Below, one piece after another: positions 38,338-60,087 of a stretch of 60,087 bases of DNA. The notes below the pieces were generated by a model, which worked only from the letters and a program-made list of their open reading frames with translations, was not told where the DNA came from and ran no database searches. The stretch covers positions 633,835 to 693,921 of the forward strand of contig MU004233.1 of NCBI GenBank assembly GCA_010405405.1. The letters are read 5' to 3'. The position numbers and the translations under genes are program-made. The stretch is from Microthyrium microscopicum (lineage: Eukaryota). Numbering within the stretch: position 1 is the stretch's first letter; every line of letters starts with the position of its first letter.

Positions 38338-38483
38338 TGTAGTGAGACGAAGTCGTAGTAAGTAAGATGATAGAATAAGGAAGCTATCTAGCTTCTGATC
38401 CCTGAAGGGGATGGAATATCTATCTAACCCTAGCCCTACCTCTTTAGGAATAGGTAAGAGCTATAATTTAATGTTACGTATTA
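38338..38483 (-). repeat. Putative 3' LTR (~146 bp) of the Gypsy element
   Basis: On the minus strand it follows a polypurine tract (AGGGGGCAC), starts TAAT (read as RIP-mutated TGAT) and ends ...CACTACA at 38338. Confidence 0.6.
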
Positions 38484-40820
38484 GTGCCCCCTATAAAAGA
38501 AAGGATAAAGTCCGTTAAGACGTTCTTATTAGTTATAAAGCTAGAGAATATATAATAGAATTATATTAAAAGTTTATCTTATCTTAAGATACTTAACCTA
38601 TTTATTTTAAATTATAGAATCTATAATATTTTATAGTATACTCTTATTATTCTATATAATACTATTCTCTACTTTATATTTCTTAATAAGCTAAGCTTAT
38701 AGCTTATTTTATAGAATCTACTTAGAGTCTAAGTATAGTACGCCTTTAAGTAGTATAAAGTAACTCTAAATCTTCTTCTAGTATTTACTATATTCTATAA
38801 GTTTAGCTTTTTTATTAAGTAATTTAGTAATCTTAAAATAGTAATTATCTTACTTATACTAAGCTAGCTTAGGTTAAGAAGGAATCTTATAATTATAAGA
38901 ATTAATTTCTTTAGAAGCGAGTTTAATTTATTTAATAAAAATAATAAAGTAAATTACTAACTAGGATAGTAACTTTAATTCTACTATATTATTATAACTA
39001 TATATACTAATAATTTTATATAGGCCTTTATATAGTAATTTCTATTTAGTATTATTCTTATTAAGATTATAACCTTTTATTTTATAACCTTTTCCTTAGA
39101 TAAGATATACTTATATTCCTATATAGAGCTAAAGCTTTAGTAGTCTCTAGTTATTAGTAGTTTTTATTTAGAGGTTTATATAAGTAATTAAGTCTATAGC
39201 TTTATATTAATAAATAAGTCTTTACTAAATAAGATCTAGAACCTTATTTAGTATTAGACTTTAACTAGCTAATTCTAAGCCTATACCTAGGTTAAACCTA
39301 AAAAGAAGTTTATATAAGGTCTATTTAGTAGCTTATAATATTAAGGAGTTTAATTAGTAATATAGAGATAGAAAATATAAGACTTAATCTTTATATTCTT
39401 ATATAAGCTAGTATTATATAGTAATTTTAATAACTTAATTAGTTCTTTCTAACTATTTATCTAATTATAAGTAATATACTATTATAACTATAAGAGCTAT
39501 ACTAAGTATTATATATATTATAGTCTAGAACTAGCCTATAAACTTTTTATCTCTATTATAAATAATAGCTTAGGGAATTCCTTAAAGTAGCTACTAGTTT
39601 AGTAAAGTCTTTACCTACTAATTACTACTCTATATAATCTTTTTAGAAACTATATAAGTTATTTTTAAATATTTATATATATCTATAAGTATAGCATTAT
39701 ATTTTTAATACTTTAGCATAGCTATAATAAAATTAATATACTATATATAAAATAGAATTAAAGAATATTAAATTAGTTTTATATCTCTATATAGCTTATA
39801 TCTTACTATTCTTACTTTCTAGTAAATTAAGTAGTATATAAGATACTAACGTAAGTACTATACTAAGCTATAAATATAATAACTTTAAGTTATATAATAG
39901 TAAGCATAATAAAATTTATTATAATATTCTTAATTATATAAGAGTTTAAAAATATAAACTTAGGTAAACTTAGGAATTATAAGCCTTTTATACTTATTAT
40001 ATATATTAATATATTAAAGTAGCTTATCTATATCTCTAAAGAATTATATACTATATAAATCTTTTATAGATACTAAGTTATATAAGTTTTTTTAATAGTT
40101 ATCTTAGTAATAGCCTATAATTAGTACTTATTTAAAGTTATACTTTATAACTATAGTAGTTATATTATATATATACTTTTAGATCTTTTTAAGATTCTTC
40201 TTATTTTCTATATTTTTACTAGTAAGTAGTAAGTAAAAGAGAGCGTTAAGAATTATATTAAGCTTTTCTTTAATATAATAAATATCTAAGTTATATAACT
40301 ATAAATAGAATAAAGCTTACTATAAATATAAGTTCTATCTATCTATAGATATACTTTTAAGTATAGTCTATTTTAATATCTATATATTAGCTATATAGTC
40401 TATATAAATAATAGTTTATAAGGTTAGATAAATATATTCTTTAAGTTTAGAGATAGCTTAAATTAGTACTAAAATTTCTAGCTTTATTATCTAGTAATTT
40501 ACTTTAGCTTTTATAAGTATCCTTAATAAGAAGTAAAGAGTTTAAATCTTAAATTTCTTAATTTTATTATTTTTATCTAAATTACTTTATATATAGTATA
40601 TATAAACTCTAATACTTTTATAGCTTACGTTAACCTAAATATATAGTCTTTTCTTAGTATCTAAGAACGCTAATATTTTAGAGGCTTTTTTTTTAATAAT
40701 TAATTTAACTTTCTTAAAAGCTATAAGTATATCTTTATTAGGTATAATAGTTATTTTCCTAGTAAAGTTTAATTTACTAGTCTTTATCTTTAGATTATTA
40801 TAAAATAGATAAGTCTCCTC
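38338..40820 (-). mobile_element. RIP-inactivated Ty3/Gypsy (chromovirus-like) LTR retrotransposon, 3' half
   Basis: Minus-strand relic translation gives RNase H at ~40390-40680 (LYI*VNVS, YFLLRIL.KAKVNY*IIKLE, IIYIDY = VDAS/ELE/TDH) and an HHCC zinc finger at ~39790-39990. The integrase core at ~39280-39720 reads GIP*AIIYNRDKKF..F* and YYL*LDK*LERTN* (= YHPQSDGQSERTNQ). A chromodomain-like segment lies at ~38680-38800. Confidence 0.88.
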
Positions 40821-41161
40821 TATCGTGAAAAAATTATTATTGATTTGAGTTATTTAATAACACTATAACTACTTATTACTATAATACGTAGTTCTATATC
40901 TAAGTACTTAACTTAATATTTAATTCGTTTAAAATATATAGAATAATTAGAATAAATTTACTAATTTGAGATATATTAAATAGAAATGAGAACTAAAACT
41001 ACTTATAGCGTTTAAATTAATAAAATAAGATAAACTATTAAAGTACTTCTATAAAGCTAATAAAGAATATTCTTTAAATAAGATAAATAATTAGAATTCT
41101 TAAATAAGTCTAATATACTCTATTACTTAAGTAATATTAATAGCTAGAACTAGTATATATT

Positions 41162-42071
41162 NNNNNNNNNNNNNNNNNNNNNNNNNNNNNNNNNNNNNNN
41201 NNNNNNNNNNNNNNNNNNNNNNNNNNNNNNNNNNNNNNNNNNNNNNNNNNNNNNNNNNNNNNNNNNNNNNNNNNNNNNNNNNNNNNNNNNNNNNNNNNNN
41301 NNNNNNNNNNNNNNNNNNNNNNNNNNNNNNNNNNNNNNNNNNNNNNNNNNNNNNNNNNNNNNNNNNNNNNNNNNNNNNNNNNNNNNNNNNNNNNNNNNNN
41401 NNNNNNNNNNNNNNNNNNNNNNNNNNNNNNNNNNNNNNNNNNNNNNNNNNNNNNNNNNNNNNNNNNNNNNNNNNNNNNNNNNNNNNNNNNNNNNNNNNNN
41501 NNNNNNNNNNNNNNNNNNNNNNNNNNNNNNNNNNNNNNNNNNNNNNNNNNNNNNNNNNNNNNNNNNNNNNNNNNNNNNNNNNNNNNNNNNNNNNNNNNNN
41601 NNNNNNNNNNNNNNNNNNNNNNNNNNNNNNNNNNNNNNNNNNNNNNNNNNNNNNNNNNNNNNNNNNNNNNNNNNNNNNNNNNNNNNNNNNNNNNNNNNNN
41701 NNNNNNNNNNNNNNNNNNNNNNNNNNNNNNNNNNNNNNNNNNNNNNNNNNNNNNNNNNNNNNNNNNNNNNNNNNNNNNNNNNNNNNNNNNNNNNNNNNNN
41801 NNNNNNNNNNNNNNNNNNNNNNNNNNNNNNNNNNNNNNNNNNNNNNNNNNNNNNNNNNNNNNNNNNNNNNNNNNNNNNNNNNNNNNNNNNNNNNNNNNNN
41901 NNNNNNNNNNNNNNNNNNNNNNNNNNNNNNNNNNNNNNNNNNNNNNNNNNNNNNNNNNNNNNNNNNNNNNNNNNNNNNNNNNNNNNNNNNNNNNNNNNNN
42001 NNNNNNNNNNNNNNNNNNNNNNNNNNNNNNNNNNNNNNNNNNNNNNNNNNNNNNNNNNNNNNNNNNNNNNN
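41162..42071. other. Assembly gap (Ns)
   Basis: Run of N bases. Confidence 1.
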
Positions 42072-45000
42072 TTTAATATTTAAAATATTAAGAATATCTT
42101 TAATAACTTTAATGTCTAAAATATCTATCGTGTTTCTTATATCTACTATATTTATAATATTCTAGATACTAATATAGATATAATATAGTAGATAGCTCTA
42201 ATTACTATATATAGAGCTACTCTAGAAACTAGCCTTACTAGAATAATTACCTAAATATCTAGAATTATCTAGAATTATCTAGAATTATCTAAAAGAATTA
42301 AAAGCTCTTACTTATCCCTATTAGGATTAAATACTTTATTATATTATAGTATTAGATCTTAACTTTATAGACTATCTTATTATAGGCGTATTAAGATTAA
42401 GTTCTATAATGCTATACCCTTCTTATTATTATCTATAATCTATATCTCCTTCTTCTAGCTTAAGTCCTTACTTATAAGATAGAATAATAGGGCATAATTT
42501 AGATCTTTCTTATTATTAATAGCATCTATAATATCCTAAAGAGTTAGAAGGCTCTTAAGGTTTAGTAGCTTAGTTTCTATCTATCCTAGTTTAGTAAACT
42601 AAATATATATCCTCTCTAGCTAGTTCTTATTACTAGGTTCTATTTATATAATTTATTAGTAATTAGAGCCTATATATTTACTTAAATATATAAGACTTAC
42701 TTATTAGGTCTATATAATTAGGATTATTCTACTTATTATTTACTTTATACTTATTATTAGCTAAGAACTTACTATATAATACTACTTTCTTAGGCTATAG
42801 AGTATATCTTTTATATCTATATTGCTTATTAAACCTAGCTTTAGAACTACTTTACTTACGCCCTAAATATTATAGTAGCTTAAAGAAGTCTTAGTTCTTA
42901 TTATCTTCTTAAGTAGGTAGATTATAATTATCTTCCTATATAGGCTAAAATTTTGCCTAAATAATAATATTAGTAAGATTATTACTAGTTTTTTAAAGAA
43001 CGTACTTTATAAAGCTTATTAATATTATTATAGTTAGAAGTATATATATCTAATATTAGCTTTTATTACTCTTTATATTATACCCTAGTTTTATATAATA
43101 TAAGATCTTTAATAGTTTTTTAAATAAGTAAGCTCGTTTTTTATTTTAAATAAAGTAGTTATAAGTTCTATTATTTAAGCTATTTTTAATAACTTACTAT
43201 AGTTACTAGTTAGTATTATATTATTTATTTAATAACCTAAATTACCTTAACACGTAGGTAGGTTATACTAAAAATTATTAACTCTTTAAATAATAGTCTC
43301 TATATATAGCTTAATAAGTATATAGATATATATAATAAGTTTACCTAAAAATAGCAATTCTATAGTCTTTATAGCCTAGTAGTCTCTAGAATATTTCCTA
43401 CCCTAGCTAAGTATAAAGGTTTTACGCTTATAACTAATACGTAAATAAAATAGTAAGTTATTAATAAGAAAGGAGATTATCTTACTAGTAAATAATATAT
43501 ATTCTTAGAGGTATTATTAATATATAGTTATAATTTAGTCTTATTTAAAAATATAAACTTATATAAGGTTTACTCTCTTTATTTTTACTATACTTATATA
43601 ATTTAGTAAAGTTACTATCTTTTCTTAGCTACTTAGTAAACTTCTATACGTCTAGTTTCTTAATTTTAAGTAATCTTAAGAATATAGAGTTAAATAATAC
43701 TAATTAATATATATCTTACTTAGTCTAGATATTTAGTAATAATACTTTTAACTATTTAGATATAGTAATTCTATACTAACTAATATAGTACTATATCTAA
43801 GTAGTTTTTAAAATTAGCTAAATCCTATATATACTATATCTAAGAAGATATAAGAATAAACTTATATTCCTATAGAATTAGTTATACTTAAATATAGTTA
43901 GTACCTCTAAGATATTAATTACTATAGTTAGGAACTTAGGTAGCACCTCTTTTAAATATACCTTATAGTAATAGTTTTAAAGCTTATTACCTATTATACT
44001 TTACTTACTAGTACTATTTTAATAATTTAGCTAAGGATCTAAGTTATACTTACTATTAAGAGTAGCTAAGGTTAATTTATTTATAGTTAACCTAATAACT
44101 CTATTATTATATAAACCTTAGCTTAGTATAGGTTCTTATTTACTTTTCCTTATAGGTAAATATAAACTTTATAATAGACTAGATTTATTAATAAGATTAT
44201 TAGTATTATAATAATAAGCTTAGAGAGAAATAGTCATTTAAAGGCTATATATAGTTACTAAGGTATAGAAACTAGTAAACTAGATTATATAAATTATAAA
44301 GAGAGCTTATCTATATTTATACTATATATAAAGCAATTACTAAGAAGATAATTACCTAAGCTAGGAATAGATATTTAGTCTATATTAAAAGATAGTAAGT
44401 TATATATTTACGCTTATCTTAGTTTTTATAAATAGAAATAACTTAGCGTAGCGTCTTTATTACTTATAGCTTAAAAAGGGCTATAGTTAGAAAAATCTAC
44501 TTTAATACTATTATATTAGCTTATATATATAATAAAGTAGAAGCAAAATAGAATAAAAGAGATAGATACTAGTATATTATATAATACTACGTTATCTATT
44601 AAGCTTTTCTAAGTAATTACATTACTATAACTAATAAAATAAAGAGAAGAGGTTTCTAGAATAGTCTAAGACTTATATATCTATTAGTATTTATTAGCTT
44701 TTTAGATAAATCTAGATAAATAAATAATAGAAATACTTAGCTACTACTAAAAGACTTATCTAAAGTATTTATAGGTCCTATATCTTAGGTAGCTTTTAGA
44801 GCTTCGTTAAAAGTAGCGTTTAATACTATATAAGAATTACGACTTAGTTAATATTTAATAGGAATTATTCTTTTAGAAATTATTAAGCTAGTTTTTAGAT
44901 AGTTAAGTAAGCCTAACTTAGAGTTTAGGGCCTAGAGTTTATTAATACTTTTAGATTTATAAGTACTATTTCGCTTAATAATAGTACTTTTAACTTATAT

Positions 45001-47399
45001 TTATCTAGTTAGGTCTAAAAACTCTATTTATTTATCTAGCTAGTAAGTAATTATTATATTAGCTAATATTTAGTTTAGTAAGTATATTTAAAGTATATTA
45101 TATTAGTATTAGACATTTACTTTATAAAGTCTATTTTATTTTATTTATTATAGCTTAAAAGGTCTTAAGCTATAAGGTCTTATAATAGAGGTCTACTATC
45201 CCTAGTAAAGAAGAATATATAAATTAGAATCTAATAAAAGTAAATTATAAGTTAGAAAAATATACGTAGTAGTTTACTTAGCTTTATCTCTTTTTATACC
45301 TTAACCTTTATAAGCTTTTATAAGTTTATTCCTTATCTTACTTTTTATAATATTACTTTACCCTACTAAATTTATTATAATTTTATTAACTTAGTATAGG
45401 CTTATTTAAGAGGTTATATTATATATAAAACATATTATTAAGATTTAAATATTAAAGTAAAGTAGTAGTAAAAATCTAATAAGTATAATATTATAATAAA
45501 GATTACTAGGTATATAGGTATTTTAATAAAAATATATAATTAGTAGAACTTTAAATAAGTATAGTAGAGAATAAGAAGTAGATTATATAGAATAATAAAA
45601 AAAGAAAATAATATTTTAAAAGTTATACTATATAATGCATAAAAGATATTAATACTAGAACTAATTTTAGTAGCGTTTTTTATTACTTTTTAACTCTTAA
45701 CTAATATAATATATATTAAGTATATACGAAGGTTATATTCTTAAAACTCATTTAGCTATTATTATTAGTTCTTATTAAATAAGCTATTCTAAGGATTATA
45801 TAAAAGGGATAAGAGGAAGTAAGTTATATTAAGTCGTTTCTACGTTACGCTATATTAATATAAGAGGTTAAATTAAAGCAAATCGTAGGATTCTATTTAG
45901 CTATTACTTTCTATTATTATTAAATCTATTAATTTTAAGGCTACGTAAAAAGGGCTAAAGATTATTAAGTTGTACTAAGTAATTTCTATACTATGCTATA
46001 TTAAAGTAGAGGCTAGGTAGTAATTTTATATTATAAAATTAGGTTTAGCCTACTATTATATTTAATTATTATCTAATACGCTAATTATTATATATACTAA
46101 TTCTTAGGCTATATAAAAGGAGCCTAAGATTATAAGCTTATACTAAGCTATTTCTATATCTCTTTATATTAAAGTAAAGGCTAAGCATTAATTTATATTA
46201 TAAAGTTACGTTTAGCTATATTAATCTATATTATAAAGTCACGTTTAGCTATTACGTTAATATATTATTAAATATATAAGTAAACTTAAGTATTATATAA
46301 GATAAATAGAAGATTTATAGTTCGTAGTTAGTAATAATAAGATAAGCTAAATCTAAATAATTAGATAGAAGTTAGTATTAAACTTACGCTATTTCTTATA
46401 AGAACGTCTTAATCGTTACTCTATTAAGCTACTAAAAGTTTATATCCTTTTTTATTACTACTATACTACTATAATAAGTAAAATACTAACTATTATTATT
46501 ACTTCTTCTACGTAAGATAAGTTAATTATTTACTAAATTATTTTAAGAATACGTAAATATATTTAGCTATTAACCTTTACTAGCTAGAGTAAGCTTATCT
46601 AATTTATATAAAGAGATACTTTTAATAAAGAGGCTAGTATTAAACTTTTTAATTACTTTATTTAGATAACTAGTTTATTAGTAATTACTATTACGTTATT
46701 TTATAATAACTAGTTTATCTCTCTTAATTATAAGTAAGCTATAGAAGCTACCTTTATTACTAATTAAGTTAATATAGAGTTTAAACTTATAGAGTCTATA
46801 AGTCCTAAAGTACTATATTAGTTACTATCTTTATATATATTAATAAATAATAGTTAGATATTAGGTATTACTATACTTATAGTCTACGCTTACTTAATAA
46901 GTTTAGACTCTTTTATTATTATATAATAGTTTAATTTTAATTTCATATATTAAACTTAGTAAAATATTAGTTAACTATTATAGTACTAATTATAAGTACT
47001 ATTCTAACCTTCTATAGATAATTACTTAATCTATATATTATATAACTATCTACTTTTCTATAAATATAGTAGTAAATACGTTAACTATATATAGACTAGC
47101 TATACTTTAATAAGTTATATTAATTCTATAAAAACTTACTATAAGGTATATAAAAAGATACTAGAGAATAGTATTTTAATAATCTTATAATATATAAATA
47201 ATTCTCTATACGTACGAGCCTATTAGCTAGTTAATATTATTAGATAGAACCTAATATTTATAGTACTATAGAATACTATTTCTTAGTTAAATCCTACTAG
47301 TATATAAAGAATAAGTAATACTTTTTAGTTTTATTAAATAGGACTACTAAACTTAGCTAATATATGCTAAAAGTTTAATTAAGATACTTCTTTAATATT

Positions 47400-49620
47400 A
47401 GAATTACTAATAATTATTAACTCTAACTTATTAGATATTACTCTAGAGTTAGAGTTATAGACTTCTTTTATTATAAAGCTTAAGACTTCTATTAAATAAT
47501 TACTAGACTAGAAGTTATAATAAGCACCTTATTTTATAACCTTTATTAAATAACCTCTAGAACTAGAGTTATAAGCTTTATCTATTATAAAGCTTAAGAT
47601 CCTTATTAAATAAGCTCTAGACCTAGAGTTATAGGCTCCTTCCCTTATAAAGCTTAAGGCCCCTATTAAATAAGCTCTAGACCTAGAGTTATAGACTCCT
47701 TCTATTATAAAGCTTAAGGCTCTTATTAAATAAGCTCTAGGCCTAAAGTTATAGGCTATTTCTATTATAAAGCTTAAAGACTTTATTAAATAAGCTCTAA
47801 AGTATTTTATTAAAACTAAGTTATAATTATTTCTTTAACCTAAGATAAAAGCTAGCTCTTAAGTTTTATTAGAAGCTTCTATTAAGCCTAACATAGAGCT
47901 ACTTTTTAATACTAAGCTTAAAGTATTTTTTAAAGCTAAAATAAATACTACTATATTAGGAACTAAAATATAGCTTAATCCTTAGATATCTAACGAACCT
48001 ATACTTAATTAACCTATAGTATTATCTACTATTTATACTAAGTAGCTAATAGACTTTAAACGCTATTAACTTAATAAATATATATAAACGTATTAAGAAG
48101 GTAACTAGTTTATTATATAAAAGTAATAAAATAAATAACGCGCCTTAAAAAGTAAGAAAGTACCTAAACTAAAGCTAGGGTTTAGATTAATATATATAAG
48201 GATTTAATATCTAAAGCTAACCTATTCTACTAGGCTATTAAGATCTAATACTAATTTATTTTACCTAAAGAACGTTTACTTTATTAACTATAAAGTTATA
48301 AAGCTAAGTTTTAATTTAGGAATTAAGTATTCTAATATACCTTAGTATCTTATTTATAATAATTAACGTTATACTTCATTCTAATTATTAATATATTTCT
48401 TAGATTAAAGAGAGAAGAAGAACTTATAATAGTCTAAAGATTACGTAGTAATAAATTATATTTTATCTCTTAATTTATTTTATTACTTTAAATTTAGTAG
48501 TCTATTGCTTAATTAATATAGCACTATTAATTACTTTATAAAATAAGACCTTACTATTAATAGGAGTTCTTTTTATTTAATTAAATTTATAAAAAAGTAA
48601 GAGCTCTTTATATTACTTATACTTAAAGAACTCTTTAAAAAACTTAATTATAGTATTATAATTTAGAGTATTAGCATTTTTTCTAGAACTATTATAGCTA
48701 CTATTTATAAACTTTCTATAGTCTAGAGCATAAATATAGTTACTTACTATCTTATAAATATATATTTATATATCTATAACTACTAAGAAGGAGTTAGAGT
48801 CTAGAAGTATATATAGCTATACCTTAGGTTATATATTACTATAATCTTAGGATTATTTTAATTCTCTTAGCCTTAAGCTTTAAGAAGATACTAGTAGAGT
48901 TTTATTAGTAATAAACCCTATCTATTATTAATAGATAATTAAAGTTAGAATAAAAGTTTACTTATATATATTCTAAATTTAGGCTTTTATTTATTTCTAT
49001 TAGCGTATATTTTATTAGTAATAGTAAACTAATATAAGAAGCAATCTTTATTATTTATCCTTATATATAGCTTTATTATATCTTATACTTAGCTAACATA
49101 ATCTTCTAATATATAAATGGCCTTATTTAGCTAGTAGTTATATACTTAGATATTATATAATATTAGTAATTATCTCTTACTTTTCCTTATATATATTATA
49201 GTTATTAAGACTATAGTATAAGTCTTAAAGTTACTTCTTTATAGCTATAGCTAATTAGATATATTTATTTAAGTTTATATTAAGTCGTTATATTAGCTCC
49301 TCCTTAGTTATATTTAAATACTTTTTTAAGCTATCCTACTATCTAGCTATATTATCTTTTAAAAGTCTAATTGTAATATAGAGGAGTTATTAAGTAAAGA
49401 GAATAGTATAAAATTAAAGTTAGAATAGGGAGAATATACTAAAGATTAATAATAAGTATATTATAAAAATTAAGAGTTATAAATTTATTATAATATAGAA
49501 AGGAGAATATAAAGAAAATATACTATAGTAGTACTTAAATAGTTAGAAATACGTTATTATTTAGAACTACGCGCTACTTATAACTAAATTTATTAGTTTT
49601 AAAAGCTTATATATTAAGCT
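47400..49620 (+). pseudogene. RIP-destroyed long ORF of unknown product (contains the 60-bp repeat)
   Basis: One plus frame reads as plausible protein when TAA/TAG are treated as former CAA/CAG/TGG/CGA. Boundaries are approximate. Confidence 0.4.
47450..47800 (+). repeat. 60-bp tandem repeat, ~5-6 copies, probably a former coding repeat
   Basis: Unit TATTAAATAAGCTCTAGACCTAGAGTTATAGGCTCCTTCCCTTATAAAGCTTAAGGCCC recurs every 60 nt. Reverse-RIP reading is approximately PIEQAPDPESQAPSLVELEA. Confidence 0.85.
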
Positions 49621-51349
49621 TATAAATATCTTTATGCTATTAGAAAAAGACTTATAGACTTATATCTAGGTTAGTAGTTATAGTTAGATTATATTTACGT
49701 ATAAGATATAAAGTAAGTAGTAGTATTTAGCATTAATAATATAATAAAGTAAATATTCTTTAAGATTATATAAGATATTTCTAGAAATTTCTAGACTTAT
49801 CTAGATTTTCTAGACTTTTCTAGATATACTATTATTTAAGATTTATATGCTTTTAGGAAAGGTTACTTTATAAATATATCTATAGCTTAGAATTACTACC
49901 TTTATATTCTTTATATTATAATATATAGTACTATAGATTTTATTCTCTAATATAATAAATTAGCTAATAATTATAATTATTTTAATATTATAGGGTTATA
50001 ACCTCTACGTTACTATAGTTTTACTTTATAACTTATTATTTAATATATTTACTATACTTAGATAGTAACTAAGTCTAGTATATGAATTCTAAGAAGTAAT
50101 ATTTATTTTAGATATAGTTAAAATATTCTATACTCTATTATAATAGAGGTCTAAATAATAGATCGTTTCTAACCCTTTCTAGTAACTAGCCTCTTATATA
50201 TTAATATCTTATAAACTTTTATTATTAACGTAAGATTTCTAGTAATAACTTACTTACTAGTTTTATAATTTAAGGAATTATATATTTATAAAATAAACTA
50301 TACTTATTAAGATAAAGAGAGTTATATAGGTAATAGTTTAGATATTCTAGCTTGTTTATTATTAGCTCTCTATATTTAAAATAATTAATAGCTATATAGT
50401 TTTACTTATAGGATTACTATCCTTATTCTTATTAAGTTAAGGAATATTAGTACTAAAAGATATATCGTAGTAATAAAGCCTTTAATTATAATCTTCTACT
50501 TCTAAAAGTAAATCTATAGTAATAGCTTTAGGTTTAATAACTCTAATAAATTAATAAAAGGATTAGTAATTATTATTATTATTTTATTCTTATTTAAAAG
50601 TAAGGTAAGTAAATTAAGAGTACGCTATAAAGCTTAAGAACTATCTATAGCTACCTATACATAGTTACTACTATATAATAAGTTTATCTTAAATAGGTAT
50701 TATTATAGACTTTAATATAGCTAGTTTACTTATAATTAGTATTAATTAAATAATAAAAAGTAGTATAAATAAAATAGAAGTCTAATAGCTATTTTATATA
50801 AAGTAGACTTATAATAAGATTACGTTTTTTCTTTACTATAGTAGTTAAAAGCCTTAGTATATTACCTAAGATACTACGTTACGTTCTAAATTCTATATTA
50901 TATAATCTATTATAAACCTTATAGCCTCTTATAAACGTAATTCTACTAAATACTTTATTTATAAAGTGCTAGAAATAAGTACCTAAGTATATATAATTTT
51001 TAATATTTTTTAAGTTATTCCTACTAAGGTAAATAAGAGGTATACCTACTTAGAAATAAATAGAAATAATATAAAAAGAAAATATAATATACTTAAATAT
51101 TTTAGATTTAATAACTCTAGTTAATATTATACCCTCTTAATAAGAATTAAAAGCTTTTCTATTTTTAATAAATAATAATATTTCATAATATAGACTAGGT
51201 TATACTAATTAATCTATAAAGCGTACTAATAAAACTAAATAGTAATAATTACTATTTAGTTCTTTACTTAAAGCGTTAACCTCTTCTATTTTAATTTTTA
51301 GCCTAAATATAATTAATAGTAATAATTTAGACTTTTATTACTCTTAAAT

Positions 51350-52400
51350 TATTATATTAGCTTAGTTTTATAGCTAATTATAATAGTTTAGTTATTCTTT
51401 ATATTTACTTACTATATCTCTTCTTCTTTTATCTTTTATTCTACTTATTCTTTTTTCTCTTCTTTCTTCTTTTCTTATTCTTTATTCTTTTTACTTATAA
51501 TCTTTTTCTTCTCTTCTTTCTTTTTATTTACTATTTTAAGATATAGATAGAGAAGGTAGTAGTAATAGTCTTAATATAGTAAATAGTTTTATAGCTAAGA
51601 TTTATTTTATCTTAATAGACTCTACTCTTCCTTCCTTAAGGATAATATCTTAATCTTTATATTAACTAATATATATTTAATATAAAGGTATAGTTACTAT
51701 AGATAAGAAAAAATAAGTAGTAGAAAAAAAGATAAGAAGCCTTAAAGCTTAGTAGTAATTTTAAGTTTAAAACCTTATATAACTTTTTTAATAGTTAATT
51801 AGATTCTTAGATTTTAAAAGTAATAAAGTAATCCCTTCTATTAAATATATCTATAGCTTAAGATTCTATTTTCCTTAATTACTACTTTTAATTACTATCT
51901 CTCTTATAACTTATCCTATTATTTACTATATATTTCTTATAAATAAGTATATTTAGAATATTTAAGGTTATATTAGAGAGCTCCCTAATATAGAGATTAG
52001 AACCTTTAAAATAAGAAAGTATAGATAAAGAAAATTATTTAAGCTTTTAAAGCTAATATTATTAATTAACTTTAATATAGTAACTATAGATTCTATATAA
52101 TAACTTTTAGTTTCTACCTAATAAAGAGTATTTTATATCTTAAACTCTAGGCTTTCTTAGCCTCTTTAGCTACTACCTTAACCTTATTTTTAAGTATAGT
52201 CTTCTCTAATAAGTTAGTAACTTCTTTTACCTTAGCTTTCTCCTTTAACTAAGCCTTCTTTATAGCTTTCTTTATAATCTTCTTTATATACTTCTTTATC
52301 TTCTTTACGTTCTTTAGTTTCTTTATATTCTTAGCTTTTAAGTAGAAATATAAAATATAGTAAACCTACTCTTAGTAGAATAGATAATTACGCAACTATA
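51350..52400 (-). pseudogene. RIP-destroyed Lys/Glu-rich coiled-coil ORF(s)
   Basis: CT-rich plus-strand tracts at 51400-51540 and 52150-52340 read as AAG/GAA-rich codons (KKAIKKA*LKEKAKVKEV) on the minus strand. Confidence 0.4.
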
Positions 52401-53899
52401 ACTTTATATTTATAGAATAATTAGTCTATACTTAATTATTCTAGAGAATTATAGTTCTTACTCTTAATTTTATTTATATCTTAAATATTACTTTACTCTT
52501 CCTTAAACTTCTTAAAAATTAGCCTAAGGTGCTTTAAGTAGGTCTAATTAAAGCATAGTAGTACCTATTTAAGTAAATCCTAATAAGAGATATAAGAGGG
52601 ATAAGTTGCTATAATTAGAATAGGTATATATTAAAGTATATATCTAAATAAAGCCTATTATAGAGAAGTATAATTATAGTTAATGCATTAGGATTAAACG
52701 CTATTTAAATTTAGATACTATATTAGGTTTTTTAAGATTTATATATTTATATAAGCCTATTAGATTTATAAAAGCTTAACTAAGTTTATAGATTATCTTA
52801 GTATAAAAGATAATATAATATTTATAGTTATTAGTAGTAGACATAATACTAAAATAAATAAAGATATTAAGTATAAAGATAAAGTTAAATAAGCAAGCTA
52901 AGAATTAAAACTAGTAATAATTATTATAAGTAAGTCCTAGATTTAGATAGTAAAGTTACTTAGACTAGTAGTTTATTATTAAAGTTATAAAAAGATATAG
53001 CCTTTCCTATCTAATTAAATAGAACTTAATACCTTAAGTTTAAGCCTTCTTAACCTTTAGTTCCTTATTTTTATCTTTTTCTATCTTTCTCTCCTTTATT
53101 ACCTTTTTCTTAGCCTTTAAATATAAATAAAGTAGATAATAGAATTAATCCTAATAAAGAAAGTAGTTACGTAGCTAAATCTTTTCTAATTTATCTAAGT
53201 ATATTAATAATGCTAGTATTATAATATAGTATAATTTACTAATCTTCTACTAATAGAGATAATAAATTTACTTATAGAAAAGCTAAAATTAAAGGATTAA
53301 ACTATTAATTTTCATTTTTAAGGAAGTTCTAATATTATAAATAAATAGAAGGAAAATTAGTAGAATACTCTATTAGAATATTAGCTTAGATTATTAATTA
53401 CTTAATAATATAAATAATATAGCTTTATAATTCTTCCTAAGCTCTTTACCTAAGATTCTAGTAAGAGCTATAAAAACTAATAGTACTATATTATTTACTT
53501 TATAAGTTAATATTACTAAGAAAAAAAAATATAAATAAAATAATATTTATAAATAGATATAGCTAGGTTATATCTTATAAATATACGCTAGAAAATATTT
53601 AGCTAAATAAATACTCTATAAGCTATAAGGCGTTATTATTTATTCTTATTATTCTTCTATCTCTCTCTAGATTCTTTTAGCTATTAGATATATCTATTAG
53701 TCTAGTTAAGATATTTAAATTTACTATAAAAGCGCATTTTATATATTAATAATAATAATATTAACTTTAAGTATATTTTCTAATATCTTATATTATTAAT
53801 AATTTAATAGTAGTACTTTAACCCTTACTATAAACTAAACTAATTATATATAAAGTTATTTATTAAATTTATTATCTCTAGGCTTTATCTTAATTATAA

Positions 53900-56800
53900 C
53901 TAAACTCTTTTTAATATTTTAGTATATATTATTTTTAATATTCTTTAGGTATTTCTATATCTCTTCTATAAATAGAAAAGCTAGGGCTTCCTTAGGTTAG
54001 GACACTAATTTAGTTAACTTAGGCTAAGTTAGTCTTAATTTAAGATATATCTATAAATCCTTAAGTCTTATTAGTTATACTACTTAATTTTTAGAATAAG
54101 CCTTTATAAAACCTATAGTATTTAATTAAAGCTTATTAATATTCTATAATAGTATATTAATTAGATTATTATTTAAGTATAATACGTTAATTAAGATATA
54201 CTTTACTATATTACCTACTTAAAGAACTCTTCTAATACCCTAAGTCTAATTACTTAGTAATATTAGAATAGATATTATAATTAGATACTTTACTTACTAT
54301 TAGTTACTTTTAGTACTATAACTACTATACATTCTAACTAAAACCTAAATATTCTTATTAAAGAGGTATTTACCTACTCTTAATAGCATTTAACTACTTA
54401 TAGTAGACTTTAGAATATTTTAGAAAAAGTAATAGATATTAGCTTTATTACGTAAAGATAAGCTAGTTCTTAAATAGCCTACTTTAATTAAAAATAACTT
54501 TTTACTTAATATACTAATTTTAGTAAAATAAAGTACTTAGAGATTAAATTTCTTAATTATATATTAAAGCGCTATTATAATTATACTAGCAAAAGTAAAA
54601 TACTTTATAATAATTAAGACCTTACCTTATTATAAGCTTTATTCCTTTTACTTTTTATTAAGAAAGTACGTTTCTAGGTTAGTATAGACTTTTTTAATAA
54701 TCTTTATTACGTACTATATTTAAGCGCTTATCTTTAAAAACTAAAAGGCTTTTTTAATAAAAAGATTATCTTTAAACTTAGCTAGTTTCTTAGAGTTAAG
54801 CTTTAGAAATAGGCTACTATTAATTCTTACTAGTATATAATAAAGATTATCTTTAGTTTATCCTTTAATTTTCTTTACTTATTTTAATATTAATAGATAA
54901 GGCACCTTAATAATAAGTTTATAATATATAATCTTAGTAGAGGTTTAGTAGACTATATAGTTAGCTAGCTTAGCTTATATCTATTTAGCTTAATATAGTT
55001 TACTTTTATACTAAGTACTAGAGTTATTAATAATAGTTATCTTTAGTTTATTTATTTACGCCACTATATATTTATTAAGCTTATTTATAAGCTATATTAC
55101 TTCTAAGTCTATTATATTAATAATAATAAGCCTTATTTTATTTAAAGGTAGCATAATACACTTTTAATTAAAAAGCTCTATATCTATTATATAGCAGAGT
55201 TTAAATAAGGTATATATATTAGCTAAAGTAGTACTTACTTAAACTTATTCTCTTATAAGCTATTTCTCTTCTCTTTTATTAAAATACTTACGTAATCTTA
55301 TATCTTTCGTAATAAGTATAGTAATCTAACTAGAAATAATATTAAGTAATAAAAAGGTAAATAATATATAGTTATTAATAAAGATTACCTAATCTTTCTT
55401 TAATTCCTATTTAAGAAACTCCTTAATATCTTTATTAGTATTAAAGAAGTAAATATATTATATATTCGCTAAGTAAGTAATTAGGTTTAGTTAGCTTACT
55501 ATAGTATTATAATATATCTTAAATTAACCTAATATAGTAGCTCTAGACTATATACTATAATAGTACTTTAATAATATATAACTAAGTATATAGGTTTCTT
55601 TATTAATATTAGAATAAGTTAGGTTATTTAGTATTTAATATCTATAAAACTTATTTAAAACTAAGACTTTAACTATAAAGTATTTTTAACTACGTAGGTA
55701 TTTATCTCTATTTACTACTAATTCTATATTAGTATAGAGGTAGTTCTTAGGTTTTAGAGTTCTATAATATTTAGTTTTCTATTTTTCTAACTACGCTTAT
55801 AAAAGTCTTATAATTAGTTATAAAACTTAAGATATATATAAACCTAATATTATTAGTATAATAATACTAGTCTGCTTAAGTATTCTAAAATTAGTTTTAA
55901 AATTAGTAAAAAGTCTATACGCATAGGAGACTTTATTTAGAAATATAAACTTAGGTTTTATGCTTAAATAGTTAATATAGAGGGTAAATACCTAGTTAGG
56001 CTTACTTTTATATTTTAAGGTATTAATTACTTTTTCTTATTCGTTTAACTAAACTAAGATTATAGATATAATTATTTATATATAGTTTATATTAATAGTA
56101 AGAGTACTATACTAGTAGTTTTTAGAATTAATATAAGTTATAGTAGATTTTAATTATACTAGTAATTTCTTAAAGTAATAATATATTATAAGTTAGTTAA
56201 GACTTTTTAACTACGTATAAGGACCTTTCTCTTTATTTTTAAAGCCTTAATAATTAAGAACCTAAATATCTAATAGATATCTCTTAAGAAGCTTAGGTTT
56301 CTTTTCCTTTATAAGGCGCTACTTCTTTATATATATTACTATACTTTTAATTTATTAACTATTTATCTAAATAGTAACTAGTATTTAGATAGTCTTCCCT
56401 AAGCCTAGAACGTTTATAATATAAAGGCTTTATATAAGAATAATATACTTATATATAATTATTACTCTAATAGCTTAATAAATTTAAATATTAACTTTAA
56501 ATTTAGGAATAATAAAGTTTAATATATTATTCTTATCTTTATAGTTAAAGAATACGTATATTTCTCTTTAGTCTTTAAGTATTAAGTATTTATAAGTTTT
56601 ACTTTATAATAATCTTATATAGAAGCTTATAGTAAAGAAAGCTTTTAAATCCTTATCTTTAACTATTTTAGACTCTCTATATTCTATATATATATTATAA
56701 AATAGTTTAGCTTATAAAGCTTTAGTATATAGAGCTTTACCTATTATAGAAGACTTAAGTATAATAGATTTACGTTTAGTATAGTTAAAGTAGTTAATAA

Positions 56801-58800
56801 GAAAACTAGTTTATTCTTAAATATATTTATTTTTAGAAGTCTTTAGCATATAAAAGCTAATAGTATTAAGTATTAGTTTATATATATTAGATAAATAAGA
56901 TTTAATTTATTTCTTATAAGCTTATTATATATTAATTCTTACGTTACTATCTTTACTATTATAGTTATACTATTACTTATTCTTATAAAGTTATAACTCC
57001 TAGAAATATTTTATTTCTATACTACGTAATATATTTACTTTATTCTATAAAGAAGATAGTAAGTCTAATAATTAAGATTTAGATAGTATAGTAACCTTTT
57101 TTATAATTAAATTAATTACTTTAGTAGCTATAGAGTTATCTAGTATAGTAATATCTTTCTTAGTTAAGTCTTTAGTATTTATAGAAATATTTACTATAAG
57201 TAGTAATAATTCTAAGTTATTAATAGTAAAATTAATAATATTTATAGCGCTAGTAAGATTAATAACGCGCTTAGAAGAACTTAAAGGTTTAGTATAGCTA
57301 GAAGAAAATAGCTTATTTTAAAAAGATAGCATAGTTAGAAAAGCTAGCATATTTAGAGAGCTATAGCGTTTTCTTAAGTAATTAAGAAGGAGTTTAGCTA
57401 TTATTAGATAACTTAATTTTTATAAGGTAAAAGGTAATATAATATAATCTAGAGTAGTAGAATTAGGTCTCTATAAATAACACATTTTAGATAGATAATT
57501 AATATTTATAGAAATTAACACTTATACTTTGCTATTTCTTATCTATATATTACTAGTAGGAGGCTTAAAGCTTTAAGGTTACGTAAGTCTATTACTATCT
57601 AGAGGTAGTACTTAATCTTATTATATACTCTCTATCTCTAGCTTAATAACGCGCTCTTTAAGTCCTTAAAAAGATATAGTAGTAGTATTTATAGGTCTAG
57701 CGCTATCTAGAAGTAATACTTAATCTTATTATATACTCCTTATCTCTAGCTTAATAATACACTCTTTAAGTCCTTAAGAAGATATAGTAGTAGTATTTAT
57801 AGGTCTAGCGCTATCTAGAAGTAATACTTAATTTTATTATATACCCTTTATCTTTAGCTTAACGACGTACTCTTTAAGTCCTTAAGAAGATATAGTAGTA
57901 ATATTTATAGGTCTAGCGCTATCTAGAAGTAGTACTTAATCTTATTACATGCCTCCTATTTCTAGCTTAATAATAGGCTCTTTAAGTCCTTAAGAAGATA
58001 TAATAGTAGTATTTATAGGTCTAGCACTATCTAGAAGTAGTACTTAATCTTATTATATACTCTCTATTTCTAGCTTAATAATACGCTCTTTAAGTCCTTA
58101 AGAAAATATAGTAGTAGTATCTATAAATTTAGTACTATCTAGAAGTAATACTTAATCTTATTATATACTTCCTATCTTTATATTAGTAGTAGTATTCTAA
58201 GGCTATAATATTTAGATTAATAAGCTTAAAGGAGTATAATATTCTTAGCTACTATTCTTATTAATTGCTTCTAAGATTAGAATTAATTTTGTCTTTACCT
58301 TCTTACGTTTAGACTTACCTCTATTTTTTCTACTAGATAGGCTTATTTATACTAAAGTTTATTATTCTTTATAATTATAAGAACTAGATTTATTCTTAAA
58401 TTTCTTTCTATTTATAGATACTAAAAGATTATAACTACTACTAACTTTTTCTATATTATTCTTATTATTATTATACTTTTACTTTATTCTACTAGATAGT
58501 ACTAATAGAAATTCTAAGTTTTTCTCTTTAGAATTATCTAGATTATTATTTAACTCTATTTTAGAATCTTTAACTAAGCTATCTTTAGAATCCTTATTTA
58601 AGCTATCTTTATTATCTTTAGTAACCTTACTATCTTTATTATTTTTAATAACTTTACTATTTTTATTATCTTTAGTAACCTTATTATCTTTATTAAATTA
58701 GTTAAGAATAAAATCTTTATATATATTATATTTATACGTTAATAGTTTAGTAATAAAGGTAGATTAAGTAGTTAGCTAAGAATCTATATAAGGTTAAGTA
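53900..58800 (-). pseudogene. RIP-destroyed SNF2-family (SF2) helicase/ATPase with long repetitive N-terminus
   Basis: All motifs lie in one minus frame. Motif I is NVLGLGKTI* (GLGKT at 56391-56405) and motif II is VLVLNKFY = LDEFH (~55645). Motif III is SRAT = SGAT (~55540) and motif IV is GKVLII (~54615). Motif V is VLVRMYSSYSTKSN (~54320) and motif VI is *GIRRVL*VGN = QGIGRVLRVGN (54210-54242). Ends are approximate. Confidence 0.8.
57595..58175 (-). repeat. 108-bp (36-codon) tandem repeat, ~5.3 copies, in frame with the SNF2 relic
   Basis: CTATCTAGARGTARTACTTAAT recurs at 57595, 57703, 57811, 57919, 58027 and 58135. Confidence 0.92.
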
Positions 58801-59344
58801 TAAGGTTTCTTATTACGTCTATTTTAAAATAAAGAAGAAGAGCTTAAAGTAAAAGTAACTAAGGTTTTATACTTTTATTTATTAGTATAAGTTTTCTTTA
58901 AAAAAGATTTAACCTAAATAACTTTAAAAACAATTTTTCTTAACCTATAGAGATTATTATAAATAACTCTAGTAAAATTATATATATCTAAACTTATTAA
59001 AATAGTTTAATTATCCTATACTTAACTTATATTATGAATTATATTTAGATTTTTAGATAGGTCTAACTTTAAGCTTATTATATCTTTAAAGTACTTTATA
59101 TTAATTTTAACTATATATTTATAGATATTTATATTTATTTTAGATAAGTTAAAGGAGCCTAGTTTATATATATCTTTTAAGTCTAGTATAACCTATTTTT
59201 ATAAAGAGTCCTTAGTAAATACTAGTATAATTATATTAAAGTCTTTACTATCTTAAGCATTAGTTTCTTAAAAAATAGATAAGGACTATTAGGTTTTATA
59301 GTATTTCTTTAAAGTAGGCTTTTTTTTTTTAATTATATACGTAT

Positions 59345-59512
59345 AGAAGGGTCTAGTAAAGCTAAAGAAGGTAGCTAAGTAAATCTAGATAGTATATAGC
59401 TATTACTAGAGGTATATATATAAAATTAGAAAGGGTCTAGTAGAGCTAAAGAAAGTAGTTAGATAAATCTAAGTAGTATATAGCTATTACTAGAGATATA
59501 TACATAAGATTA
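59345..59512. repeat. 84-bp direct repeat, 2 copies
   Basis: GGGTCTAGTARAGCTAAAGAA at 59349 and 59433. Confidence 0.8.
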
Positions 59513-60087
59513 GCTATATTATAGTATATTACTATAATAATTTTCTAAGGTACCTTAAAAAAAGTTATTATTACCTTTATTAGTATAGCTTAGTACTATA
59601 TTTTTATTAGTATTAAATTACTATAAAGTTTAATATAAGCTATAGCTATTAGGACTTAGCTAAGGTAGAATTATACCTCTAAATCTAAATATTATAAAGT
59701 TATACTAAGTTAGGTTACGCTATATAGATAGTAAAAGTTATATTTTATAATAGCTAGGCTACTACTATAGTTAATAGTAGATATTACTATTTTAAAAGCC
59801 TAGTAGTAGCATTATATAGCCTTAGTATCTATATTAGTTAAATAAAAGATAAGACGTAGCTAAACTTAGGCTATTACTCTATAGTTATAGTACGTTTAGT
59901 AATATGCTATTAATAGAGTTTAAATAGTAAGTATAATTTCCTTATAGTCTATTTATAGTTTTATAAGGCTAGTTAGGAAGCTAGGAATAGTATAGCTAAT
60001 ATCCTCTAAAAGTAGAATTACTATATATATCTTTATTATTAAATATTATAAACGCTTAGGTTATTTATAGAATAATTAGAATTATAT

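Follow-up and report, generated by a model that had tools for sequence, protein, structure and literature searches.

The last 21.7 kb of the window (the whole stretch of 60,087 nt analyzed here) form a RIP-saturated, AT-rich block, which we interpret, with moderate confidence, as an ordinary RIP-degraded repeat island next to housekeeping genes in a filamentous ascomycete. On this reading, the island is a composite of two or more unrelated fossils, and the two recognized, a Ty3/gypsy LTR retrotransposon and the relic of a large SNF2 gene, both lie on the minus strand (Table 1). Every 1.5-kb bin between 39 and 60 kb had a GC content of 0.18–0.24, a TpA/ApT ratio of 1.5–1.8 and a (CpA+TpG)/(ApC+GpT) ratio of 0.02–0.12, compared with 0.45–0.52, 0.54–0.84 and 1.15–1.47, respectively, in the flank at 1–37.5 kb. 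TpA made up 22.8% of the dinucleotides in the block (GC content, ~0.2), and between 42,072 and 60,087 there were 58 CpA and 29 TpG left versus 4,099 TpA. The high TpA/ApT and low CpA+TpG ratios, together with the transition-type differences among the 108-nt units described below, are those of a RIP-mutated repeat. The flanking gene region contains PPR, cullin, zf-DNL, cutinase, COPA, Rft1 and ATG7 genes. The left edge of the block is sharp, about 100 bp wide and located within ~38,350–38,490; the final CpA or TpG before the block lies at 38,485 and none occurs within 38,486–39,500. On the right, the block is open at the window end.

Table 1. Features of the RIP-saturated block, in window coordinates.
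Feature	Position	Strand	Evidence or remark
RIP-saturated AT-rich block	38420..60087	.	GC content, near-elimination of CpA/TpG, TpA share
Ty3/gypsy pol relic (RT, RNase H, integrase)	39297..41161	-	RIP-aware alignment at 41,147–39,297, colinear with reference residues 126–727
Run of 910 N	41162..42071	.	Where the Gypsy relic would have its RT N-terminus and protease
RIP-degraded DNA without assignment, 11.7 kb	42072..53771	.	First 1.5–2.5 kb would be Gypsy gag and 5′ end
Tandem array, 60-nt unit (20 codons), ~6 copies	47441..47799	-	Contains the one genuine ORF of ≥100 aa
Two purine-rich, K/E-reading low-complexity tracts (~51,422–51,540 and 52,252–52,337)	51422..52337	-
Putative relic of a large ancestral ORF (~1,860 codons), C-terminal half SNF2-family ATPase core	53772..59370	-	Low stop density, RIP-aware profile scores, colinear traceback
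Candidate motifs IV–VI, GKVLIIIKYF ... XGIRRVLXVGN (compatible with Q..xR..R.G)	54168..54635	-	Strict-gap score 43.5
Candidate motif II, FLNKVSY (RIP could turn D and E into N and K), and candidate motif III, RTL (RIP-compatible with GTP)	55755..55973	-	Weak alone
SNF2 Q motif YXAIRV and motif I IINVLGLGKTIX (X = TAA)	56352..56480	-	Frame reading, N-lobe score
Tandem array, 108-nt unit (36 codons), 5.4 copies, in frame inside the relic ORF	57595..58177	-	Locally denser stops
Short repeats (9, 18 and 27 nt), rich in D/N and K when read in the relic frame	58594..58710	-

An earlier note on this DNA had described ~18 kb of heavily and uniformly RIP-mutated sequence, from 42,072 to 60,087, as part of a candidate giant mobile element. 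The heavy and uniform RIP is confirmed by the three indices; the extent is not, since the block starts at ~38,420–38,490. Position 42,072 had been taken as the start because it is the first base after the N run, which is not a biological boundary, and 60,087 as the end because the window stops there. With both ends artefactual and a Ty3/gypsy relic beginning the same RIP block, the 18 kb are not supported as one element; a single large element may nevertheless have spanned 42.1–53.8 kb plus the SNF2 gene. The note had itself held that resolution into known nested TE families would speak against its proposal, and since the favored reading is a composite with a Gypsy relic, this has in part come about.

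RIP acts before meiosis on duplications that exceed a few hundred bases, which are recognized by homology, and converts cytosines to thymines, mainly in CpA. Repeated sexual cycles would have stripped the locus of nearly all its CpA and TpG, converting Gln, Trp and Arg codons of the relic into TAA or TAG and leaving DNA that would be non-coding and probably heterochromatic. The view that RIP implies a formerly multi-copy gene set stands, because saturation over more than 20 kb and the sharp ~100-bp edge argue, from established knowledge of RIP, for repeats and not for leakage. The SNF2 gene is saturated by RIP, which implies at least two former copies of its segment; the repeat that carried it may have been a multigene repeat resembling X3X3R8 (see below), a giant element with the gene as cargo, or simply a duplicated segment.

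The 3′ end of the Gypsy element would form the island's sharp left edge, with pol running from 41,147 to 39,297 and continuing 5′ into the N run. Using one natural pol as the reference (L244:2132–4681, in which Pfam confirmed RVT_1, RT_RNaseH, Integrase_H2C2 and rve), we obtained 17 colinear blocks from RT through integrase, with RT, RNase H and integrase in the order that characterizes Ty3/gypsy LTR retrotransposons. The score at 38.4–41.16 kb was 101.5, versus a mean of 42.4 (sd 4.8, maximum 51.9) in 30 shuffles, and reached 116.5 with the context model. The earlier statement that no RT or integrase was recognized holds for 42,072–60,087, where the same Gypsy reference gave a best score of 45.2, within shuffles; the RT–RNase H–integrase relic lies in the RIP block to which that segment belongs. 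Judging from lengths, the 5′ part of the relic probably extends across the N run and reaches the first kilobases past 42,072; a search for gag-PR past the N run scored 42.6, within shuffles. The integrase C-terminus and 3′ end would be expected from 39,296 down to ~38,430. No LTR pair was detected, in that 38.4–39.3 kb had no direct repeat anywhere up to 60 kb in either the ACGT or the R/Y alphabet, which may reflect truncation of the element or a 5′ LTR that is lost or hidden.

The second fossil would be a gene of ~1,860 codons, read from 59,370 to 53,770, in which a repeat-rich N-terminal region precedes a SNF2-family ATPase. Stops occurred at a mean of 12.3 per 100 codons over all frames and fell every 8–10 codons. 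In a single minus frame, at ~59,370–53,790, we counted 139 stops in 1,800 codons (101 TAA, 38 TAG and no TGA), versus ~12 per 100 averaged over the six frames. Seven stop-to-stop ORFs of at least 100 aa were listed, six of which were artefacts of the N run; the sole real one (47,529–47,834, minus, 101 aa) and this one long low-stop frame are what the "several long relic ORFs" of the earlier note come down to. Within the N-terminal region, the 108-nt units were 87–89% alike in ACGT and 99% alike with C=T and G=A merged, and 24 of the 26 variable columns were transition-only, with a transversion in the other two.

The SNF2 signature of ..YQ..G.. followed by ..GLGKT.Q was found in the low-stop frame: YQ..G-compatible residues lie 20 codons upstream of LGLGKTI, which is followed by a Gln-compatible stop. 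Further downstream, candidate motif II has one residue extra (NKVSY), so that its spacing is not DEAH-like, and candidate motif III consists of RTL only. The traceback was colinear from the Q motif to motif VI, in order and in one frame, with weak alignment between motifs and with I–II and III–IV gaps that exceed the canonical spacing.

To score this frame, we used a home-made RIP-aware method and a profile built from 79 natural proteins, viral only, whose sources are SNF2 by Pfam in all three records searched and in all 12 randomly chosen ORFs among the 79. With strict gaps, the relic frame scored 54.4, versus 27.8–37.5 in the other five frames, and none of 500 codon shuffles reached this value. 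The context model gave 124.5 versus a shuffle mean of 78.7 and maximum of 110.9 (0/300). When the Q and I motifs were left out the score was 70.7, versus 51.7 in shuffles, with 9 of 500 reaching it, while motifs IV–VI alone, with strict gaps, scored above all of 500 shuffles (mean 25.1, sd 3.8, maximum 42.1). Against block-wide null maxima, the N-lobe score of 56.3 was not reached in 60 trials (mean 40.0, maximum 47.9), and the C-lobe score lay merely at the 95% quantile. All standard searches with X-at-stop translations were blank: Pfam, run on 12 frame pieces and three sub-pieces, returned no families and hence neither SNF2-rel_dom nor Helicase_C, and a word-indexed protein search, phmmer against the PDB and tblastn against phages returned nothing. 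A blank Pfam result is expected because roughly a third of the bases have changed, and it lowers certainty without excluding the family. The SNF2 helicase of the earlier note is therefore borne out, as a SNF2-family ATPase relic, by RIP-aware scoring and motifs only, and these sequence data support assigning the minus frame at ~59,370–53,770 to this family.

That the SNF2 likeness arose by chance from translating AT-rich DNA, with the block being nothing more than unrecognizable transposon debris, is in our estimation very unlikely. The blank standard tools would fit such an explanation, as would the relaxed-gap scores, where codon shuffles overlap widely and one of 500 reached the observed 98.0. 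The RIP-aware method moreover produced matches attributable to composition at the K/E tracts and one probable false positive: a UBC-like match (49.8, 0/200; 42.8 with the context model) that lies antisense inside the SNF2 core and has a His position that is not RIP-compatible. By contrast, LGLGKTI with its Gln-compatible stop and upstream YQ..G-compatible residues falls in the only long low-stop frame, the N-lobe score beats all 60 block-wide nulls, and an independent C-lobe signal follows in the same frame (0/500), with motifs I–VI ordered in spite of the long I–II and III–IV gaps. In the remaining five frames, moreover, scores were only 27.8–52.2.

In the 11.7 kb between 42,072 and 53,771, we found only short low-stop runs, and RIP-aware scoring gave no significant match with Gypsy pol, Gypsy gag-PR or pogo DDE_1. 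The sole SNF2-profile signal there was an orphan helicase-C-like match at 45,717–45,842 (+), which is borderline: its score of 52.1 was reached by 2 of 500 local shuffles and falls between the block-wide 95% quantile (48.3) and the null maximum (60.6). With a DDE_1 profile from 41 natural ORFs (Pfam DDE_1 in all five checked), no pogo/Fot1 core was found in 42–60 kb, the top score being 51.4 versus a shuffle maximum of 63.3. A DDE_1 match of 61.5 with the context model falls at the last profile columns and on a K/E tract. Several unrelated profiles match at these tracts, indicating a composition effect. The tracts are probably what had been called K/E coiled-coil proteins, and K/E-reading sequence does exist, merely as short purine-rich low-complexity stretches at ~51.4–51.54 and 52.25–52.36 kb. 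The Pro/Glu-repeat protein was not found, with at most 7 Pro per 40 residues. Finally, comparison of the window with itself, in ACGT and in the RIP-collapsed purine/pyrimidine alphabet, revealed no dispersed repeat, LTR, TIR or second copy.

These observations bear on whether 42–60 kb, and what lies beyond, could be part of one giant, once multi-copy cargo element of the Starship or X3X3R8 type with a SNF2-type ATPase, the Gypsy relic lying beside it or inserted at its edge. We consider this unlikely. Earlier repetition is implied by the RIP saturation, the SNF2 relic has an unusual size and repeat content, RT, integrase and a pogo core went undetected in 42–60 kb with the references used, and the orphan helicase-C-like match would parallel X3X3R8, a published precedent of 26 kb with several helicase genes (PMC3017866). 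Nevertheless, we saw no end, TIR, direct repeat or second copy within the window, the boundaries first proposed are artefacts, the UBC-like match is antisense with an incompatible His, and just one long relic frame is convincing. No captain or recombinase was seen either, although Pfam on X-at-stop frames is blank even for the Gypsy and SNF2 relics and hence blind here.

Alternatively, the SNF2 relic could be a paralogue, now dead, of a host gene for chromatin remodelling or repair, produced by segmental or tandem duplication, destroyed by RIP and surrounded by accumulating transposons without ever having been carried by a mobile element. SNF2 genes are ordinary host genes, and no transposition machinery was detected beside the relic. 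RIP destroys gene duplicates, and Hane and Oliver call X3X3R8 an "endogenous gene cluster" (PMC3017866). We nonetheless find this origin quite unlikely, given that the island adjoins single-copy housekeeping genes at a sharp edge, that no second copy lies nearby in the 60 kb, and that in-frame N-terminal tandem repeats of 36 codons and of 3/9 codons are, in our judgement, unusual for conserved host remodellers.

The favored reading, a composite repeat island, can be compared with several known systems. AT-rich isochores of Leptosphaeria maculans and centromeres of Neurospora consist of RIP-degraded, AT-rich DNA of nested retrotransposons. The block resembles such isochores in its sharp switch from gene-rich DNA of ~47% GC to AT-rich DNA, in its extreme RIP indices and in its Ty3/gypsy relic, and differs from them in that about half of it has no retroelement signal with the one Gypsy reference and that it contains a SNF2 relic that is not of transposon type. 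Starship giant transposons of the Pezizomycotina move tens of kb of cargo as a unit and can become RIP targets when multi-copy; their hallmarks are a captain (a DUF3435 tyrosine recombinase) at the 5′ end, defined termini and insertion sites that are polymorphic. Here, unlike in a Starship, the sole visible island edge is a Gypsy element, and among the matches listed in our literature search we found no paper tying SNF2 to Starship structure.

A published precedent is X3X3R8 of Parastagonospora (Stagonospora) nodorum SN15, a family of RIP-affected repeats with a 26-kb unit that carries Rad5/SNF2-like helicases (Hane and Oliver 2010, PMC3017866). It has nine gene-bearing copies, several of them intact, with three helicase genes and a Rad6/UBC gene. 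Both cases would present a multi-kilobase RIP-affected repeat, recognized only when RIP is allowed for, with no recognizable transposon and with Rad5/SNF2-like helicase genes and uncharacterized ORFs, and a giant element with a SNF2 gene would be less novel than the earlier note had it. By contrast, our block has one convincing SNF2 relic and a single orphan helicase-C-like match of borderline score, a credible UBC is missing, and RIP is total here (GC content, ~20%), whereas several of the X3X3R8 copies are intact. AcademH, KolobokH and Helitrons are fungal mobile elements with their own SF2 or SF1 helicase, sometimes within very long ORFs, and the helicase domains named for them are DEAD, Helicase_C, PIF1 and Helitron_like_N, not SNF2_N (PMC10799480). 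Unlike these elements, as described there, the present relic was found without a transposase relic and has a motif I (LGLGKT) and a Q motif that are both of SNF2 type.

From position 1 to about 38,400 the GC content is 45–52% and dinucleotide ratios are normal, and the long ORFs match the PPR, cullin, zf-DNL, cutinase, coatomer alpha, Rft1 and ATG7 families, indicating that this flank is housekeeping fungal DNA. Beyond about 38,420, and right up to the window end, every 1.5-kb bin has 18–24% GC, a TpA/ApT ratio of 1.5–1.8 and a (CpA+TpG)/(ApC+GpT) ratio of 0.02–0.12, and the dinucleotide counts for 42,072–60,087 are 4,099 TpA versus 58 CpA and 29 TpG. The heavy uniform repeat-induced point mutation (RIP) described in the earlier note is thus borne out by GC content and dinucleotide ratios, and RIP is saturated from about 38,420 to the window end. 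The edge of this island is sharp, CpA and TpG keeping their normal density to about 38,340, thinning out to 38,485 and being absent from 38,486–39,500. The limits given in that note for the block, 42,072 and 60,087, are not biological: the first is the base following a run of 910 Ns (41,162–42,071) and the second is where the window stops. No telomere repeats were found within the window.

The same note had listed several long relic ORFs. Taken literally there are none, since six of the seven stop-to-stop ORFs that reach 100 aa in 40,000–60,087 arise from the N run, leaving a single real one (Table). Over the six frames, stop codons average 12.3 per 100 codons. In the minus-strand frame in phase with base 60,086, stop density falls to 1–9 per 60 codons between about 59,370 and 53,790; these stops (139 in 1,800 codons) are all TAA or TAG, and their frequency is close to the yield expected from Gln, Trp and CGA-Arg codons. 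Because RIP produces transitions only, the ancestral reading frame is preserved. The plus strand of this stretch also has a stop-poor frame, which is the antisense shadow of the minus-strand one. A Pro/Glu-repeat protein, also proposed for this DNA, could not be found, the highest Pro content being 7 per 40 residues, and the supposed K/E coiled-coil proteins reduce to K/E tracts that do exist but are merely two short purine-rich low-complexity tracts, at about 51.45 and 52.3 kb.

Judged from its translated motifs and from profile scores that allow for RIP, the minus-strand frame with few stops is very probably the relic of an SNF2-type ATPase, as the earlier note had proposed, although standard searches with it came back blank. 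Its translation contains IINVLGLGKTI with a TAA directly after it, and about 20 codons upstream of this lies YXAIRV (X, stop codon), where the stop is compatible with Gln and AGA with an ancestral GGA; under RIP, a Gln codon becomes TAA. The traceback of an SNF2 profile was colinear along the frame (Table). Long gaps separate the motifs, with about 155 codons lying between I and II and about 380 between III and IV, a spacing that presumably fits the Rad5/16, Ino80 or SHPRH types. A RING finger between motifs III and IV was considered by eye as a pointer to the Rad5/16 type, but the pattern was discarded as meaningless in a translation so rich in Tyr, the product of Cys under RIP.

Table. Positions of motif matches, the open reading frame and the tandem array in the RIP island.
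Feature	Position	Strand	Remarks
Q motif and motif I	56,480–56,352	−	SNF2 profile traceback
FLNKVSY	~55,943	−	SNF2 profile traceback; Asn and Lys are RIP products of Asp and Glu
RTL	55,763	−	SNF2 profile traceback; compatible with GTP
GKVLIIIKYF	~54,620	−	SNF2 profile traceback
XGIRRVLXVGN	54,242	−	SNF2 profile traceback; compatible with Q...R..R.G
Only genuine ORF of ≥100 aa within the block	47,529–47,834	−	101 aa; inside the 60-nt tandem array
Tandem array, 60-nt unit (20 codons), ~6 copies	47,441–47,799	−	inside a 246-codon low-stop run, 47,328–48,065
Orphan helicase motif V–VI match	45,717–45,842	+	C-lobe of SNF2 profile; VIFLKLIX ... KXAILRIIXKGX

The profile was built from 79 natural ORFs of at least 400 aa from viral contigs, gathered by a motif-I pattern and confirmed as SNF2 by Pfam in all three records searched and in all 12 ORFs drawn at random. 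For each profile column we scored the log-odds of the window codon under C-to-T and G-to-A decay. With strict gap costs the relic frame scored 54.4, compared with 27.8–37.5 for the other five frames, and none of 500 codon shuffles reached this value (maximum, 53.6). With cheap long gaps it scored 98.0, a value reached by one shuffle in 500, and when the decay model was also weighted for CpA the score was 124.5, against a mean of 78.7 for shuffles (sd, 10.4; maximum, 110.9; 0/300) and 37.0–52.2 for the other frames. After removal of the Q and I motifs the remainder scored 70.7 versus 51.7, with 9 of 500 shuffles getting there, and motifs IV–VI alone scored 43.5 versus 25.1 (0/500). Against a block-wide null, for which each run took the highest value from six shuffled 18-kb frames, the N-lobe match was above every one of 60 runs. 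The C-lobe match was just level with the 95% quantile of this null, and its weight therefore lies in its position, downstream of the N-lobe match and in frame with it. When the 79 SNF2 references were compared pairwise, the log-odds shifted modestly (mean of 43.5 versus 33.7–35.3, with one shuffle run at 63.4). An earlier RIP-aware score, which took the maximum over all possible ancestors, was dropped because it did not discriminate, all six frames scoring about 770–830. The weaknesses of the SNF2 assignment are that motif II has one residue in excess, that the alignment between motifs is poor and that the profile is viral.

Among the standard searches, Pfam returned no family for 12 pieces of about 3,000 aa translated with X at stops, and for three shorter pieces treated likewise only POX at an E value of 5.2, which we took as noise. 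A word-indexed protein search with the helicase piece scored 7,999 candidates, none at E ≤ 10; phmmer against PDB gave no match for the 1,000-aa helicase piece or for 76 aa around motif I, nor did tblastn of the helicase piece against phages.

The left part of the island has a different origin. A Ty3/gypsy reverse transcriptase (RT) motif pattern matched 12 viral-contig loci, from which we took the ORF L244:2132-4681 (RVT_1, RT_RNaseH, Integrase_H2C2 and rve) as a reference. In pairwise RIP-aware scoring this pol ORF reached 101.5 on the minus strand of 38,400–41,161, or 116.5 with the CpA-weighted model, compared with a best score of 45.2 in 42,072–60,087 and a mean of 42.4 for 30 shuffles (sd, 4.8; maximum, 51.9). 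The alignment was colinear between 41,147 (residue 126 of the reference) and 39,297 (residue 727), and contained the integrase stretch ...YNRDKKFIGXFX.... The score and the colinear alignment together mark the left part of the island as the relic of a Gypsy element. The statement that no RT or integrase is recognizable thus holds for 42,072–60,087, as far as one Gypsy reference can tell, but not for the island as a whole, which contains this pol relic. Judging from lengths, the rest of the integrase and the 3′ end would take up 39,296 to about 38,430, exactly at the sharp edge of the island; the RT N-terminus and protease would fall within the N run; and gag and the 5′ end would occupy roughly the first 1.5–2.5 kb to the right of it. 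With the reference gag-protease ORF no signal appeared to the right of the N run, as expected from the poor conservation of gag, and self-comparison within the window found no LTR pair for the Gypsy relic. Six viral contigs (L248 and L250–L254) match the Gypsy RT pattern through a 562-aa ORF of identical length; a scan of L248 found no Pfam family at E ≤ 1e-5, showing that the pattern also catches sequences without a recognizable RT.

Self-comparison of the block revealed tandem arrays only (108 nt × 5.4, 60 nt × 6, 84 nt × 2 and units of 9–36 nt), with no dispersed repeat, LTR or TIR in either the ACGT alphabet or one in which C=T and G=A are collapsed. In the collapsed alphabet, the shuffle maximum of 33 was exceeded solely by tandem arrays and purine-rich low-complexity tracts. 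The 108-nt units are 87–89% identical, rising to 99% after the collapse, and 24 of their 26 variable columns differ by transitions only. The SNF2 relic, of about 1,860 codons, contains in-frame repeats of 36 codons and of 3/9 codons. Tandem periods in 38,300–60,087 are mostly multiples of three (9, 12, 18, 21, 24, 27, 33, 36, 54, 60, 84, 108 and 120). This bias hints at a larger coding portion in the past than the block now reveals.

The orphan match to motifs V–VI is compatible with ...W ... Q A..R..R.GQ. It scored 52.1, which was reached by 2 of 500 local shuffles and lies above the block-wide 95% quantile (48.3) and below the maximum of that null (60.6). No N-lobe or motif I partner and no low-stop frame accompany it, and as a possible second helicase it is suggestive only. 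A pogo/Fot1 profile (41 natural ORFs, with DDE_1 in 5/5 checked) detected no transposase core in the block, and two Copia motif patterns, sought for reference ORFs, had no loci in the viral contigs. With a UBC profile of 118 viral E2 ORFs we obtained an E2-like match at 55,756–55,953 (+), IYKPNIISIIILVCLSILK against HPN...G.ICLDIL, scoring 49.8 (0/200 shuffles). We judged it to be due to chance: it lies antisense inside the SNF2 core, falls to 42.8 under the better model, has a Lys at the catalytic-site His that RIP could not have produced, and is not RIP-compatible at the Asp position either. Several unrelated profiles also matched at 51.2–51.5 kb, where the K/E tract lies, and these matches look like an effect of composition.

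The available text of Hane and Oliver (PMC3017866), the only literature on it that we found, describes X3X3R8 of Parastagonospora nodorum as a 26-kb RIP-affected pattern that was recognized through in-silico RIP reversal and has nine gene-bearing copies, which carry Rad5/SNF2-like helicases, a Rad6/UBC gene and unknown ORFs; Table 4 of that paper names SNOG_09186, SNOG_01370 and SNOG_02344 among its gene products. Here too, a large SNF2-type helicase gene would have existed in repeated form before RIP destroyed it. For AcademH, KolobokH and Helitron elements, the available text of PMC10799480 gives helicases of the DEAD, Helicase_C and PIF1 types and not SNF2_N, and in a literature search on Starships and SNF2 in fungi none of the matches listed concerned an element combining the two.

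We conclude that the island is a composite of at least two components, the Gypsy relic and a repeat in which a large SNF2-type gene once lay, with an unread stretch of about 11.7 kb between them. Given the known behavior of RIP, its saturation implies that each part was once duplicated. The carrier of the SNF2 gene may have been a giant element, a multigene repeat like X3X3R8 or a plain duplication. That 42–60 kb represents a single giant element is unlikely. Still more doubtful is the reading of the SNF2 relic as the signature gene of an undescribed family of giant repeats that were not retroviral, formerly existed in multiple copies, and either resembled X3X3R8 or were borne on a Starship-like element, bringing along an ATPase of the chromatin-remodeller type and perhaps another helicase, at 45.7 kb. 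What stands of the original observation is the RIP and the SNF2 relic, but not the long ORFs, the Pro/Glu protein or the boundaries, and the finding is best seen as a further case of an already known kind.

As it stands, this is routine fungal genome architecture, a repeat island killed by RIP beside core genes, and the SNF2 relic adds another case, after X3X3R8, of a repeated large SNF2-type helicase gene meeting this fate. Should a whole-genome family with shared ends exist, it would bear on helicase-carrying giant repeats as a recurrent mobile or amplifying class in ascomycetes. Pfam, phmmer and tblastn were blank on the block, yet simple modelling of C-to-T and G-to-A decay at the codon level, with one natural reference, yielded a full RT-RNaseH-integrase relic; its recovery suggests that RIP islands are more readable than standard annotation implies. 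The stretch is covered by contigs of four sequencing runs, from one sample in one study. Adjoining the RIP edge at 37,858–38,460 (−) is a 201-codon open frame without a Pfam match, whose first codons lie inside the zone where CpA and TpG thin out; slight leakage of RIP into a host gene or promoter is possible there.
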